From a virus: 5,907 bases of DNA. Location: positions 1 through 5,907 of IMG/VR virus record IMGVR_UViG_3300045988_053242. One strand, given 5' to 3'. Below are positions 2,297 to 5,907 of this stretch, piece after piece. The notes below the pieces were generated by a model, which did no database searches, was not told where the DNA came from, and saw only the letters and a list, made by a program, of their open reading frames with translations. Position 1 is the stretch's first letter. Every line of letters starts with the position of its first letter. The translations under genes were made by a program, and so were the position numbers.

Positions 2297-2477
2297 TGTG
2301 GAAAACTTGAGTTTTCAACACTTTCAACAGGTTTTCAACAACAAGTTGCACAAAAAAATCCGTCAAAATGACGAACATTCAACAATTCAACAAGTTTTCA
2401 ACAAAGTTTTAAACAGGGAAAAAGGCAATAAATAAACGTAGTAACGTTAAAAAAACGAGTTTTCAACACTTTCAACA
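2297..2477 (+). promoter_or_regulatory. Iteron array: 8 direct TTCAACA cores plus 1 degenerate and 1 inverted copy, in three clusters
   Basis: TTCAACA occurs at 2314, 2323, 2334, 2378, 2386, 2397, 2462 and 2471. The 10-mer GTTTTCAACA occurs at 2311, 2331, 2394 and 2459. A degenerate gttttaaaca lies at 2406. An inverted copy tgtggaaaac (2297-2306) forms a near-palindrome with the first iteron. The exact 21-nt repeat gagttttcaacactttcaaca occurs at 2309-2329 and 2457-2477. Spacing within clusters is 8-12 nt. Confidence 0.8.
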
Positions 2478-2496
2478 CTACTACTACTACGACTAC
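2478..2496 (+). repeat. CTA trinucleotide microsatellite, (cta)4 then cgactac
   Basis: ctactactacta (2478-2489) followed by cgactac. Confidence 0.8.
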
Positions 2497-2529
2497 AACA
2501 AGTTAATATATAAAGAAAGCGAGGTGTCA

Positions 2530-2571: not shown

Positions 2572-3561
2572 ATGCCATGTACAAAACCATTAGTATTTCA
2601 GATGGACACGAAAAAGCCGAAACTGTGGGGAAGTCTGGAAAACCTAACAAAGCAAGGACTGCAAACGGACATCATGGACGGAGTCAAAAAAGGAAAATTC
2701 GCATTGTTACCATGCGGTAAATGCGAATATTGCCGAAAACAGATAGCGGACCAATGGGCAACAAGAATAGAGCTAGAAGCCAAAGAGTGGGACGATGTGA
2801 TTTTTCTAACACTGACATATGATGATGAACATATACCATACGGCGAAATTATCAAAGGATACAAAAGCATTCAAAGTCAGACAGTAAGCAAACGAGACGT
2901 GCAGCTATTTCTAAAACGGCTACGGAAAGCGTACAAGAAGCCAATAAAGTATTTCCTAGCGGCTGAATATGGTGACAGAACAAAAAGGCCACACTACCAT
3001 GCAATAGTATTTGGACTAAAGCCACCAGATGCACAATGGTACAAAAACCAAAAGGGCAACAGCTATTTTAAAAGCGAGTGGTTACAAAAAATCTGGGGCA
3101 AAGGCATGATAGACTTTTCGCCAGCACAACCGGGAAGCTTTGCATACGTGGCGCAGTACGTCAACAAAAAAGCCATAGGCACAGAAGAGAGCGTGAAATA
3201 CTGGATGCAAGGCAGAGAACCAGAGTTTAGAATCATGTCAAAAGGTATCGGAGAAAAGTACCTAAAAGAACACAAAGATGAAATCTTGAAAACAGATAAC
3301 ATCATATGCGCGGGAGGCCGCGAGAAAAGGCCTCCGCGCTATTTTGATAAGATTCTAGATAAAGATACCAGCCAAGACACAGAAAGCTATTTTAAGGCAC
3401 ATTCTGACGAGCTGAGAGAGGTTAGAGCCAAACGCAGACGCAATGCAATACAAAGTTTGGTCAATCTCGAACAGAGCACGAGCGTGGATTATAAAACCTA
3501 TCTAGACATTCAGAAAGAAAAGGACAAGCTAAGGCAAAAATGGCGTGAGCCGAAAGAATGA
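2572..3561 (+). CDS. VP4: Replication initiation protein VP4 (HUH rolling-circle endonuclease, phiX174 gpA-like)
   Basis: Motif 1 is FLTLTY (2803-2820). Motif 2 (HUH) is HYHAIVF (2992-3012). Motif 3, with two tyrosines, is YVAQYVNK (3145-3168) and resembles the phiX174 gpA active site. There is also an N-terminal CGKCEYC cysteine cluster. I chose ATG 2572 because MPCTKPL fits the M-x-C-x-x-P N-terminus common in gokushovirus VP4. The ORF-track start GTG 2557 is the alternative and has AAGGA 5 nt upstream. TGA stop at 3559-3561. Confidence 0.93.
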   Translation: MPCTKPLVFQMDTKKPKLWGSLENLTKQGLQTDIMDGVKKGKFALLPCGKCEYCRKQIADQWATRIELEAKEWDDVIFLTLTYDDEHIPYGEIIKGYKSIQSQTVSKRDVQLFLKRLRKAYKKPIKYFLAAEYGDRTKRPHYHAIVFGLKPPDAQWYKNQKGNSYFKSEWLQKIWGKGMIDFSPAQPGSFAYVAQYVNKKAIGTEESVKYWMQGREPEFRIMSKGIGEKYLKEHKDEILKTDNIICAGGREKRPPRYFDKILDKDTSQDTESYFKAHSDELREVRAKRRRNAIQSLVNLEQSTSVDYKTYLDIQKEKDKLRQKWREPKE

Positions 3562-3785
3562 CGCGCACAGCGCTTACAATGAATGGATTAGCCGAGCTCC
3601 GCATACGCTCCGCACGGCAAAGCGCTAAAGCGCATTCAAAACAAAGGAGCAAAACCGGGTTACAAAAGAAAGTTACAATTTTATTACAAAACAGGAAAAT
3701 CATTGAAAAAGCTATTGACAAGTGGTATAATAAGGTAAAGAGAAGAAAGGAAAGTGCAAACCATGAAAAAAATCTACATGAGTGA
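3558..3785 (+). CDS. Doubtful 75-aa highly basic ORF (hypothetical)
   Basis: Its ATG overlaps the VP4 stop (ATGA at 3558-3561), which would allow translational coupling, and the product is rich in K/R. However, its 3' half is overlaid by a near-consensus promoter and by the RBS and start of orf72. I recognise no family motif, and off-frame stops are rare in this T-poor strand. Confidence 0.25.
   Translation: MTRTALTMNGLAELRIRSARQSAKAHSKQRSKTGLQKKVTILLQNRKIIEKAIDKWYNKVKRRKESANHEKNLHE
3703..3731 (+). promoter_or_regulatory. Near-consensus sigma70-type promoter with extended -10
   Basis: -35 TTGAAA (3703-3708), a 17-nt spacer, then TGg TATAAT (TG at 3723-3724, -10 at 3726-3731). It lies about 30 nt upstream of the orf72 RBS aaagga (3746-3751) and ATG 3763. 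Confidence 0.65.
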
Positions 3786-3981
3786 GCAAAATTACATAGA
3801 ACTTAAATTTTTTGGATACATAATGGGAAAAAAATACAATTACGAAAAATTATTTAAAAAAGGAGAAGAAATTATTTGCAGAAAGTACGCATTCGAACTA
3901 GGAGATGAAACAAACAAGGACGGGTTATACAAAGTAGAAAAAAGATTCGTAGAAGATGTAATCATAACAAAGAGAGGTTGA
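3763..3981 (+). CDS. Hypothetical 72-aa protein (orf72), Lys/Glu/Tyr-rich, no predicted TM segment
   Basis: ATG 3763 has aaagga 11 nt upstream. The ORF-track GTG at 3754 sits only 2 nt from that motif. The ORF ends at TGA 3979-3981, 4 nt before the peptidase ATG. It is very AT-rich: hand counts give 14/60 and 16/60 G+C for lines 3781-3840 and 3841-3900. I recognise no homology. Confidence 0.6.
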   Translation: MKKIYMSEQNYIELKFFGYIMGKKYNYEKLFKKGEEIICRKYAFELGDETNKDGLYKVEKRFVEDVIITKRG

Positions 3982-3985
3982 CAAC

Positions 3986-4378
3986 ATGGAAATAAAAGCA
4001 TATTTAGCAGAAACGCAAGGAGACGAACAAATTACAGACCACTTCAAAGTAAAGGAATTTGCATGCAAAGACAAAACACCAATCGTATTCGTTGACGATT
4101 ATTTAGCAGTCATTCTAGAGATTGCAAGAAAAAAAATCAATAAGCCGATTGTAATCACAAGCGGATACCGCACAGTAAGCCACAACCAAAAAGTAGGTGG
4201 AGCAAAATACAGCTACCATACAAGAGGCATGGCAGCAGACATCAGAGCGAACGGAATGACACCAAAGGAACTTGCAAAAGTGCTAAACAGTATCGTGCCA
4301 AACAACAGCGGCATCATCGTATATGACAATTGGGTACATTTCGACACACGAAATGAAAAATACAGAAAGGGGGTGTAA
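3986..4378 (+). CDS. Zinc D,D- or L,D-peptidase of the M15 family (Peptidase_M15A/M15_3-like, endolysin-type cell-wall hydrolase)
   Basis: The 130-aa product has the family signature SGYR....N...GG...S.H..G.A.D and a C-terminal WVHFD. The inferred zinc ligands are H78 (4217-4219), D85 (4238-4240) and H118 (4337-4339), giving the H-x6-D...H arrangement. The N-terminal F.V.EF.C block is also typical. RBS gagagg lies 8 nt upstream. There is no signal peptide or TM segment. Confidence 0.88.
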   Translation: MEIKAYLAETQGDEQITDHFKVKEFACKDKTPIVFVDDYLAVILEIARKKINKPIVITSGYRTVSHNQKVGGAKYSYHTRGMAADIRANGMTPKELAKVLNSIVPNNSGIIVYDNWVHFDTRNEKYRKGV

Positions 4379-4380
4379 AA

Positions 4381-4497
4381 ATGGCACACAGAACCGGAGC
4401 GGGTCGAGGCGACCAAAAACGCTTTACCCAAACAGCAAAGCGAGTAAAAAATATCAACGTCCGGCCGAAAGTCTCGCGAGGCGGCATCCGACTGTAA
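4381..4497 (+). CDS. Small basic DNA-binding/packaging protein (gokushovirus ORF8-like, functional analogue of phiX174 J), 38 aa
   Basis: It is absent from the ORF track because it is under 60 aa. My translation is MAHRTGAGRGDQKRFTQTAKRVKNINVRPKVSRGGIRL. The arginine-rich N-terminus, the F-T-x-T-A-x-R-x-K-x-I-N core and the C-terminal RGGIRL match the pattern I recall for Microviridae ORF8-type proteins. A strong RBS agggggtg (4367-4374) lies 6 nt upstream. TAA stop at 4495-4497. Confidence 0.75.
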   Translation: MAHRTGAGRGDQKRFTQTAKRVKNINVRPKVSRGGIRL

Positions 4498-5348: not shown

Positions 5349-5907
5349 ATGGAACGACCACGAAGCAAATTCGACCGCAGTCACCAGCTCCTAACGACCA
5401 TAAACGAAGGCGAGCTTGTACCCATCTATTGCGATGAAGTACTTCCTGGTGATACAGCACGTGTCCAACTGAACGGGCTTATCCGTATGAGTACGCCCAT
5501 CTATCCAGTAATGGATAACGCGTACATGGACACATATTTCTTCTTTGTTCCGTGCCGTCTGCTGTGGGAACACTGGGAGAACATGTTCGGCGAGAATGAC
5601 ACCGACTATTGGGAAGAAAAGACCGAATACAGCACACCGACTTGCAAAATCGGAGGAACGAGCGGACTGGTTAACGGCAGCATCGGGGACTATTTCGGAC
5701 TGCCGACCGGAATCAAAAATCAAATCAAAGTGAACGCACTGCCGGCAAGAGCGTATGCCATGATATACAACGAGTGGTTTCGTGACGAAAACATTGAAGC
5801 ACCGTTAATGCTAGGCTATAAGAAATCGGATGACGCAGGAACAGAACCAAATCCAGGAAACGCAAACGAAGATTACTACTTAAACAAACCGAGCCTGACG
5901 ACAAACA
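5349..5907 (+). CDS. VP1: Major capsid protein VP1, N-terminal part; runs off the window end and continues at nt 1 of the circle (5809-5907 duplicates 1-99)
   Basis: It is absent from the ORF track because there is no stop in the window. My translation from ATG 5349 is MERPRSKFDRSHQLLTTINEGELVPIYCDEVLPGDTARVQLNGLIRMSTPIYPVMDNAYMDTYFFFVPCRLLWEHWENMFGEN... These are classic Microviridae capsid N-terminal blocks (S.FD.SH, VP....EVLPGDT, R...P...P..DN...D.YFFFVP.RL.W). An in-frame upstream stop lies at 5298-5300. Confidence 0.95.
   Translation, partial: MERPRSKFDRSHQLLTTINEGELVPIYCDEVLPGDTARVQLNGLIRMSTPIYPVMDNAYMDTYFFFVPCRLLWEHWENMFGENDTDYWEEKTEYSTPTCKIGGTSGLVNGSIGDYFGLPTGIKNQIKVNALPARAYAMIYNEWFRDENIEAPLMLGYKKSDDAGTEPNPGNANEDYYLNKPSLTTN
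5809..5907. repeat. Terminal redundancy: copy 2 of the 99-nt exact direct repeat (identical to 1-99)
   Basis: See copy 1; identity was checked base by base. Confidence 0.95.

Follow-up and report, generated by a model that had tools for sequence, protein, structure and literature searches.

The repeat array between VP2 and VP4

In a gokushovirus genome, the 515 nt that separate VP2 from VP4 contain an array of short direct repeats, which raises the question of what these repeats are and what they do for the phage. The window (the whole stretch of DNA that was analysed, 5,907 nt) comes from a circular genome of 5,808 nt, so that bases 1-99 recur at 5809-5907, and its closest GenBank records are human gut gokushoviruses (87-89% identity). 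All genes in the window are on the + strand:

5349 across the junction to 1160, + strand: VP1, capsid protein
1199-2056, + strand: VP2
2572-3561, + strand: VP4, Rep protein
between VP4 and the M15 peptidase gene, + strand: small ORF
3986-4378, + strand: M15 peptidase
+ strand, listed without coordinates: ORF5-like gene and scaffold protein VP3

When the M15 peptidase was looked up by its exact protein sequence, metagenome contigs alone were matched, with no isolate genome among them.

The core TTCAACA occurs eight times in the genome, always on the + strand and always within 2314-2477 (at 2314, 2323, 2334, 2378, 2386, 2397, 2462 and 2471), exactly as had been claimed from inspection of the letters alone (hereafter the sequence-only reading). 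Shuffled sequences contained 1.04 copies on average and 4 at most, and 0 of 200 shuffles reached eight. The cores are spaced by 9 and 11 nt in the first cluster, by 8, 11 and 12 nt in the second and by 9 nt in the third, and GTTTTCAACA has exact copies at 2311, 2331, 2394 and 2459. The further repeats described by the sequence-only reading are also present: a degenerate copy at 2406 (GTTTTAAACA, 2406-2415), an inverted copy at 2297-2306, where the - strand reads GTTTTCCACA, and an exact repeat of the 21-mer GAGTTTTCAACACTTTCAACA at 2309-2329 and 2457-2477, which is a tandem box pair in two copies and not a separate feature. The near-palindrome at 2297-2320 is real as well, yet as ssDNA it forms just a weak hairpin (-5.6 kcal/mol, z -1.8) that pairs the inverted box at 2297-2305 with 2312-2320. 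Moreover, the degenerate pattern TTWTCMACA has six exact matches in the genome, all six of them inside 2297-2468, and 16 matches with at most one mismatch against 5.5 expected.

With high confidence, we read these repeats as DnaA boxes within a compact module built like a chromosomal origin. This module spans about 220 nt (2297-2520), the array being its left portion, and consists of ten same-orientation 9-mers TT(T/A)TC(A/C)ACA in three clusters, followed by (CTA)n and then by an AT-rich tract. The interval first drawn around the array, 2297-2477, was correct for the repeats but missed the trios (2478-2495) and the AT-rich tract, which are the defining part. The parts of the putative module are:

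2297-2520, + strand: whole oriC-like module, with box clusters 1-3, DnaA-trios and AT-rich tract
2297-2305, - strand: inverted DnaA box TTTTCCACA, an exact fit to TTWTNCACA
2312-2340, + strand: cluster 1, with TTTTCAACA at 2312-2320, CTTTCAACA at 2321-2329 and TTTTCAACA at 2332-2340
2342-2352, + strand: conserved AAGTTGCACAA, majority fraction 0.85
2376-2415, + strand: cluster 2, with first boxes CATTCAACA at 2376-2384 and AATTCAACA at 2384-2392, and last boxes TTTTCAACA at 2395-2403 and degenerate TTTTAAACA at 2407-2415
2416-2459: spacer 2, fixed in length and variable in sequence, majority fraction 0.67, without gaps
2460-2477, + strand: proximal tandem box pair, TTTTCAACA at 2460-2468 and CTTTCAACA at 2469-2477
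2478-2495, - strand: DnaA-trios, 3'-GAT GAT GAT GAT GCT GAT-5'
2493-2505, + strand: CTACAACAAGTTA at the trio/AT-rich junction, phage-specific and nearly invariant
2502-2520: AT-rich tract GTTAATATATAAAGAAAGC, short (19 nt), candidate unwinding element

Conservation among gokushoviruses

Sensitive BLAST with the intergenic region recovered about 200 nt (2313-2517) at 72-80% identity in 44 GenBank phage records; outside this stretch, most of these records cannot be aligned to the window DNA. Dozens of further microvirus-sized contigs came from a pattern scan of IMG/VR. Over the 44 GenBank records and more than 50 IMG/VR microvirus contigs the module is 72-84% identical, and more than 50 gokushovirus genomes that share it at this level have capsid proteins just ~41% identical. 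In the 51 distinct copies on which our alignment is based, cluster 1 (usually four tandem 9-mers) is followed by a variable stretch of ~35 nt, cluster 2 (four 9-mers), a variable AT-rich spacer of ~45 nt, the proximal 9-mer pair, 3-4 nt that are mostly G/C, (CTA)3-5, the nearly invariant CTACAACAAGTTA and, finally, the AT-rich tract. Thus the motif that the sequence-only reading had proposed to look for in related gokushoviruses was found there, with its boxes conserved throughout the alignment. Majority fractions reach 0.92-0.93 in the boxes (0.93 for cluster 1 over the 51 elements and 0.92 for cluster 2), 0.89 in the CTA repeats and 0.99 in CAAGTTA, against 0.67-0.70 in the spacers and ~0.5 in the flanks. 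In addition, 50 of the 51 elements keep cluster 2 and the trios 101±1 nt apart, and (CTA)3 is exact in 48 of the 51. Repeats that are constrained in sequence, separated by stretches that are constrained in length, are the signature of a nucleoprotein assembly site.

The 9-mers of the relatives vary between TTTTCAACA, TTTTCCACA, TATTCAACA and TTATCCACA, the last being the perfect DnaA-box consensus. The last box of cluster 1 becomes TTTTCCACA in many relatives, the third box of cluster 2 is the perfect TTATCCACA in 11 relatives, and the inverted box at 2297-2305 recurs in clade A and in the group of L071, L091, L094 and L035. The Spo0A box is TGNCGAA, and we considered whether TGTTGAA, the complement of the core, could be a site of this kind; this reading was rejected, as the variants of the relatives drift toward the DnaA consensus and the distance between boxes and trios is the canonical one.

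Conservation of some 200 nt outside annotated genes could equally be expected from a structured non-coding RNA or a small protein gene, and ORFs of 93 and 96 aa do cross the array region in the window. Yet neither the Rfam scan of the whole window (E<=1; one chance match elsewhere, none in the region) nor the tRNA/tmRNA search of the window gave a candidate, RNAalifold predicted 0 pairs on 16 diverse copies, and no single reading frame is open in more than 4 of the 51 homologous elements, while conservation tracks the 9-mer repeats. We consequently give an RNA or protein product practically no weight. The argument of the sequence-only reading against the 93-aa ORF is borne out by this, and its preference for a role at the DNA level over coding appears well founded. 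Some covariation was found in a single place, the short palindrome of 6 bp in spacer 2 (2435-2448), which is maintained by compensatory changes. A promoter and terminator scan of 1900-2800 returned one weak - strand promoter. A terminator-like hairpin on the - strand at 2358-2376 was dismissed, its T-run and stem being unconserved in the relatives.

DnaA boxes and trios

In bacterial origins, the basal unwinding system (BUS) combines trios with one or two boxes next to them, a short spacer rich in G/C, and AT-rich DNA (PMC8287927, PMC6669920). Its published rules, built on the trio consensus 3'-GAT-5', ask for a box that deviates from the consensus at no more than 2 positions and lies 0-16 bp from the trios, for a second box in tandem (up to 4 mismatches) and for a run of three or more trios, each with A in the middle when the strand is read 3'-5'; a GC cluster of ~4 bp stands before the trios, and the spacer of the upstream box is most often 13 bp (PMC8287927). 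The CTA repeats of the phage are the complement of this trio: the + strand reads CTA CTA CTA CTA CGA CTA, which makes four perfect trios, one imperfect trio and then one more (2478-2495). Scanning the window with the BUS rules gave a single match, at 2460, where 0.03 were expected. Its box, TTTTCAACA at 2460-2468, has 2 mismatches to TTATCCACA and lies 9 nt from the trios; the TTATCCACA consensus was used here as one scoring, the rule allowing a species-specific consensus instead. With the E. coli consensus 34 of the 51 relatives pass, and 48 of the 51 have at least one box in range that is within 2 mismatches of either consensus.

The tandem arrangement is likewise regular: 45 of 48 elements have two boxes whose ends lie 4 and 12 nt ahead of the first trio, and the 4 nt preceding the trios in the relatives are mostly GCCC, CTCC or CCCC. 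The window differs in that its GC spacer is missing and its boxes end 0 and 9 nt before the trios, because an extra CTA replaces the GC cluster. The strand and order of the trios are the same as in 108 dnaA-dnaN origins and in the C. difficile trio, which was printed as 5'-CACCTACTACTATTACTACTATGA-3' (PMC7561715). Over the 30 nt that follow the trios, mean AT content is 0.71 in the phages and 0.80 in the hosts. The sequence-only reading had recognized an organisation of the origin type, and boxes, trios and AT-rich layout together argue for it, in an element that is located not on a chromosome but between VP2 and VP4 of a microvirus genome.

Classical gokushoviruses are different. The BUS-like module is absent from Chp2 and SpV4, and the one BUS-like match in phiMH2K falls within the VP1 coding sequence and is probably due to chance. 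Microviruses as such can therefore replicate without the module, as Chp2 and SpV4 show, and it is an accessory that belongs to the present group of larger gokushoviruses (5.3-6.2 kb). Among 72,556 plasmids, BLAST with the element found no match. As a separate observation, canonical box-plus-trio modules were seen on some large viral contigs, with no dnaA/dnaN match within 2-15 kb of each locus, so origin mimicry may be wider among phages.

Matching origins in Clostridia

The sequence-only reading had also suggested scanning candidate host genomes for the motif at oriC. We scanned 185,579 genomes, one per species (596 Gb), for the proximal pair together with the trios, written as TTCAACN{2,3}TTCMACN{1,6}CTACTACTAC, a pattern for which ~2 chance matches are expected. 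At least 120 loci were found. Among the matches listed, 107 of 120 are flanked on the same strand by dnaA (upstream), by dnaN (downstream) or by both, and a Pfam check of six of these neighbouring proteins agreed. They belong mostly to Ruminococcus, Oscillospiraceae, Acutalibacteraceae, Ruthenibacterium and other Clostridia, while microvirus genes accompany 1 of the 120 matches listed, a 5.7-kb phage contig binned into a MAG. The placement of 107 of the 120 matches listed at dnaA-dnaN means that the proximal-pair/trio sequence of the phage is the origin sequence of these bacteria.

The resemblance extends well beyond what the search pattern demanded. Host arrays carry TTTTCAACA/TTTCAACA boxes upstream at similar distances, with box cores peaking at -94, -84/-83 and -73 from the trios in the hosts and at -95, -84 and -72 in the phages; in the window, the cores of cluster 2 lie at -103, -95, -84 and -72. 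Also shared are a ~45-nt spacer, often with a palindrome, a closing inverted box and AT-rich DNA after the trios. In the locus comparison, the box that closes the distal cluster of host origins is an inverted TGTTGAAAA, and the conserved AAGTTGCACAA at 2342-2352 of the window is possibly a degenerate inverted box (TGTTGCA). The best identity between phage and host elements among the matches listed is 63-70%, so the donor origin was not found and the resemblance is one of motifs and geometry; a recent capture from a donor origin was likewise not found among the matches listed. In addition, none of the 108 host origins examined contains the CTACAACAAGTTA motif.

The boxes of these origins go along with an unusual DnaA. 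Where the recognition helix of the host DnaA reads DHSTxxY, the 350 nt that precede the trios contain a mean of 8.6 TTCAACA cores and 1.3 canonical boxes; in hosts with DHTTxxH the means are 1.1 TTCAACA cores and 2.6 canonical boxes. In DHSTxxY, Ser takes position 435 and Tyr position 439 (E. coli numbering), as assigned by alignment with solved DnaA structures. Six residues of DnaA make base-specific contacts, T435 and H439 being two of them (PMC7561715, PMC5043019). With Ser and Tyr at positions that touch the bases, TTTTCAACA would be the cognate box of the variant DnaA, to which the phage boxes are matched. As judged from their origins, the data show that a large clade of Clostridia uses TTTTCAACA rather than TTATCCACA, in step with changes in the recognition helix. 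The sequence-only reading had counted the A for C at position 6 of the 9-mer as a mismatch to the DnaA-box consensus; it is no defect, TTTTCAACA being the box found in the origins of the likely hosts. The match points to phage hosts of the Ruminococcus/Oscillospiraceae type, which fits the M15 cell-wall peptidase gene of the phage, the host group being Gram-positive.

Position, orientation and cassette-like behaviour

Ten genomes make up the clade of the window (VP1 identity of 76% or more), where the module occupies the VP2-VP4 gap and points in the sense direction. The other clade, with VP1 identities of 40-50%, has it behind VP4; 44 of these genomes carry it inverted and 2 in sense orientation. 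Of the 56 genomes counted, therefore, 46 have the module downstream of VP4. That the array sits just upstream of Rep, as was first noted, is correct for the clade of the window but does not hold in general, and placement upstream of Rep is incidental. The AT-rich end faces VP4 in both common arrangements.

Direct repeats about one helical turn apart near the Rep gene, as seen in the window genome, would normally suggest iterons bound by VP4 with a nick site adjacent, as in pMV158 or CRESS-DNA viruses, and binding by VP4 had indeed been offered as one option by the sequence-only reading. Iterons specific for a Rep protein should change with it; here the repeats stay unchanged among phages whose VP4 proteins are 33-40% identical, and their position relative to VP4 varies. 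The same 9-mer layout, moreover, stands at bacterial dnaA-dnaN loci, with microvirus genes at 1 of the 120 matches listed. Binding by VP4 has accordingly been abandoned as the explanation of the motif, and VP4 iterons appear extremely improbable.

A close pair of genomes captures the behaviour of the element: between L002 and L034 the flanks are collinear at 83-89% on both sides, whereas the ~210-nt module is exactly flipped, and short direct-repeat-like repeats stand at both junctions in L002. Moreover, window positions 3561-3733 are 93.6% identical to L034 sequence that begins at the module edge. Two positions, inversion in place and recombination breakpoints at the edges amount to cassette-like behaviour. 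Could the element then be a captured piece of a host origin, or a small mobile cassette, without any function for the phage? These same observations, together with the L002 junction repeats, are what such a reading would lean on. Neutral DNA, however, would have diverged beyond 72-84% identity in 5.3-6.2-kb genomes whose VP1 proteins are ~41% identical, the conservation is focused on boxes and trios with their spacing fixed, and the phage copies share derived features that are not seen in hosts, so we regard a functionless passenger as very unlikely.

Despite the changes of direction, third-position and whole-genome strand composition are equal across the three orientation classes, with a sense-strand third-position AT skew of +0.28 to +0.37 in all of them. 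Module direction thus appears not to set the packaged strand. This independence of direction favours a role on duplex DNA and weakens the case for a VP4 nick site inside the module.

The latter point bears on the possibility that DnaA assists nicking, where DnaA would melt the module and VP4, an HUH endonuclease, would nick the freed strand carrying CTACAACAAG/TTATATA, making the module the rolling-circle origin. An invariant phage-specific motif does mark the very junction of trios and AT-rich tract and is carried by the strand that does not bear the trios, it is missing from the 108 host origins, and the AT-rich end points toward VP4 in both common arrangements. The junction motif CAACAAGTTATATA is also, as we take it, loosely like the phiX174 origin core CAACTTG/ATATTAATA. 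A phiX174-type origin, however, is a conserved nick-site sequence of ~30 nt within the Rep gene; the element here is intergenic, no CAACTTGATA-type match was found in the window, and no similar motif was found in Chp2, phiMH2K or SpV4. More importantly, 44 of 56 genomes carry the element in the direction opposite to their genes, and close relatives differ by a flip in place, so that the nicked and packaged strand would differ by lineage, yet sense-strand composition is uniform. DnaA-assisted nicking is for these reasons rather improbable.

A possible DnaA-driven origin on the duplex form

The reading we prefer is that host DnaA opens the replicative form of the phage at this module; taking the identity of the module and its use together, we hold this to be moderately probable. 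Whether the phage uses the module as a working origin is, by itself, close to an even chance. Recruitment of host DnaA had been raised among the hypotheses of the sequence-only reading, and it appears to have been the right lead, as the same boxes stand at host oriC. From the architecture, the conservation, the identity with host dnaA-dnaN origins and the link between box type and recognition helix demonstrated here, we infer DnaA binding, unwinding, helicase loading and a benefit to the phage, which may proceed as follows.

The module presents, in this order, a distal array of eight boxes in two clusters, the proximal tandem pair, the trios directly after it and the AT-rich tract last. On the double-stranded replicative form, a host DnaA of the Ser435/Tyr439 type would bind the boxes. 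The proximal pair would then nucleate a DnaA filament on the 3'-GAT-5' trios of the - strand, the adjoining AT-rich tract (2502-2520) would melt, and host loaders would bring in the replicative helicase. The outcome would be an orientation-independent, theta-type initiation that does not depend on VP4 and operates alongside the rolling-circle replication driven by VP4. Perhaps theta-type initiation serves the amplification or the upkeep of the duplex form. The invariance of CTACAACAAGTTA is the main feature that this origin model leaves unexplained.

The boxes might, on the other hand, titrate or sense host DnaA without starting replication, either disturbing host initiation or making the expression of phage genes follow the growth of the host. 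A replicative form present in many copies, each with ten boxes, would make a strong sink, a sink would be indifferent to orientation, as the arrangement is, and in the window genome the array does stand upstream of VP4, where a responsive switch could be placed. For a sink, however, the trios, the fixed 4/12-nt spacing and the AT-rich tract would be unneeded, yet they are conserved like the boxes; as for a switch, the module is mostly downstream of VP4, hence no VP4 operator, and the promoter scan gave the one weak - strand site mentioned above. We therefore find a sink or switch unlikely.

If host DnaA does open the duplex at the module, a large group of gut gokushoviruses may have taken over a complete miniature origin fitted to the unusual DnaA of Ruminococcus/Oscillospiraceae, with a duplex form that DnaA would drive like a minichromosome, in time with the host cell cycle. 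We put this forward tentatively, as a possibility that falls short of an even chance. If true, it would allow a non-integrating, lysogeny-like carrier state in Gram-positive gut anaerobes, and oriC mimicry would become a sequence-only means of host prediction for phages without assigned hosts. Gut gokushoviruses are among the commonest phages of the human and animal gut, and the module bears on both their hosts and their long-term persistence; a DnaA-dependent origin on an ssDNA phage with rolling-circle replication offers a hypothesis for how a carrier state could persist without an integrase. Independently of the phages, TTTTCAACA-type boxes in a clade of Clostridia would be useful for origin prediction.

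Comparison with known systems

In the literature on Microviridae and gokushoviruses we found no description of DnaA boxes, trios or oriC-like modules, and searches for oriC-like modules in phages and for the DnaA-trio in bacteriophage returned nothing relevant. The element would thus be a chromosomal-type DnaA origin module on an ssDNA phage, of which no earlier description was found.

Its closest counterpart is the bacterial BUS at dnaA-dnaN (the incC region of B. subtilis and oriC2 of C. difficile), which has the same order of boxes, short GC-rich spacer, trios and AT-rich tract, with a distal box cluster upstream as in the phage module. The spacers of the phage family, 4 and 12 nt, compare with the published GC cluster of ~4 bp and a commonest spacing of 13 bp. 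The phage module differs in that the origin is packed into ~220 nt of a 5.8-kb ssDNA phage genome, in the extra invariant CTACAACAAGTTA after the trios and, for the window, in the lack of the GC spacer. Among chromosomal origins, the oriC of Ruminococcus, Oscillospiraceae and Acutalibacteraceae (L125, L136, L147, L190 and others) share with the phage the TTTTCAACA box, the pair followed by (CTA)n, distal clusters ~72-95 nt upstream, the ~45-nt spacer that often holds a palindrome and sometimes an alternating CG tract past the AT-rich DNA. They differ by their 63-70% identity to the phage element, by longer and more variable arrays and by 3-8 trios that run straight into AT-rich DNA.

Other replicons resemble the module in part. 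Work on E. coli replication in the late 1970s and 1980s produced engineered M13-oriC chimeric phages and oriC minichromosomes, whose duplex form replicates from oriC with the DnaA of that host. M13-oriC is likewise an ssDNA phage carrying a chromosomal origin, but as a laboratory construct in E. coli, whereas the module described here is natural, widespread and conserved in gut gokushoviruses. P1 oriR, pSC101 and RK2 are mobile replicons that recruit host DnaA through origin boxes beside their own initiator. They contain one to few boxes together with Rep iterons, while the phage module shows no separate iteron set, and we know of no plasmid or phage origin with a full box array and trios. Finally, the pMV158 dso and geminivirus origins also have direct repeats near a Rep gene that encodes an HUH-type Rep; their repeats co-vary with the cognate Rep, whereas those of the phage are constant across divergent VP4 proteins and identical to the DnaA boxes of the host.

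Inversion of the module and exchange of a cassette after VP4

The oriC-like module (window 2297-2520) lies between VP2 and VP4 in the window's clade and after VP4, mostly inverted, in clade B. Between the related phage loci L002 (1150-1500) and L034 (1380-1700), a module of about 210 nt is exactly flipped while the flanks are collinear. Flanking the L002 copy are GCCGTAAA and GGCGTAAAC, a pair resembling a short direct repeat. In the window as a whole and in the related phage loci, A far outnumbers T on the sense strand, with an AT skew of +0.33 to +0.36 and a third-position T of only about 0.16, and this A excess is present in all clades regardless of the direction of the module.

The left breakpoint of a second segment, window 3561-4387, corresponds to the module edge in L034 and, in the window, to the stop codon of VP4. 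Its non-coding part directly 3′ of VP4 (3561-3733) is 93.6% identical to clade-B phages, and the stretch holding a small ORF and an M15 peptidase gene is 88.8% identical to them, yet VP1 of the clade-B phages sharing this segment is only about 41% identical to that of the window. Window 3561-4387 is a cassette exchanged recently between clades. The presence of an M15 peptidase in a microvirus fits lysis of a Gram-positive host.

3986-4378, M15 peptidase gene (Peptidase_M15_3, E 4.5e-22)

Secondary structures in and around the module

Several inverted repeats and related elements were found within the module and on both sides of it:

2087-2098/2198-2209 and 2151-2161/2213-2223, nested inverted repeats
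2140-2170, perfect GC-rich hairpin (-17.2 kcal/mol, z -6.4)
2233-2268, alternating CG tract, 3′ of the hairpin and the nested inverted repeats
2435-2448, short palindrome in spacer 2 (columns 136-151 of alignment A2)
2530-2564, perfect inverted repeat of 11 bp (-13.2 kcal/mol, z -6.05)

The hairpin region at 2087-2268 may serve as a terminator or as an origin for the complementary strand. In clade-B phages and in the host origins L190 and L135, an alternating CG tract likewise lies 3′ of the module's AT-rich end. On the other side, the inverted repeat at 2530-2564 lies immediately 5′ of the VP4 ATG (2572) and spans an alternative GTG start at 2557. As for the palindrome in spacer 2 (2416-2459), it is maintained via compensatory changes, with 72.9% of cells paired against 27-55% when the partners were slid, and a covariation score of 0.261 against 0.124 in shuffles, a value reached by 1 of 500 shuffles. 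Spacers of host origins frequently contain a palindrome too.

Module-like loci in bacterial and larger viral sequences

A complete microvirus contig, L195 (CAVKUS010000079.1, 5,739 nt), contains the module in a 92% copy and is deposited within a 'Bacteroides sp. CAG:545' MAG; this placement is probably a binning artefact and no evidence on the host. Long TTTTCAACA arrays with trios and AT-rich DNA were detected in L127 (a Mesoaciditoga sp. MAG) and L236 (a bacterial MAG), with neither dnaA nor dnaN within the 8-kb locus of either, and could represent an origin distant from dnaA or a different replicon.

Canonical modules occur on ten IMG/VR contigs of 8.8-162 kb (L248, L256, L257, L261, L264, L265, L266, L268, L271 and L272). 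They combine CTA trios with a GC cluster, AT-rich DNA and between two and seven TTATCCACA-type boxes, and neither dnaA nor dnaN was matched in the 2-15 kb examined per locus. Flanking ORFs were judged by eye for five of the ten, and one in L272 looks like a cell-wall hydrolase. Larger phages or phage-plasmids may commonly carry origin-like DnaA modules.

In the Ruminococcus/Oscillospiraceae-type genomes among the host loci (L124-L241), the DnaA residues corresponding to E. coli T435 and H439 are Ser and Tyr, and the boxes of their origins are TTTTCAACA rather than TTATCCACA. In these data, the pairing of a Ser/Tyr DnaA with TTTTCAACA boxes looks like a clade-wide shift of initiator specificity.
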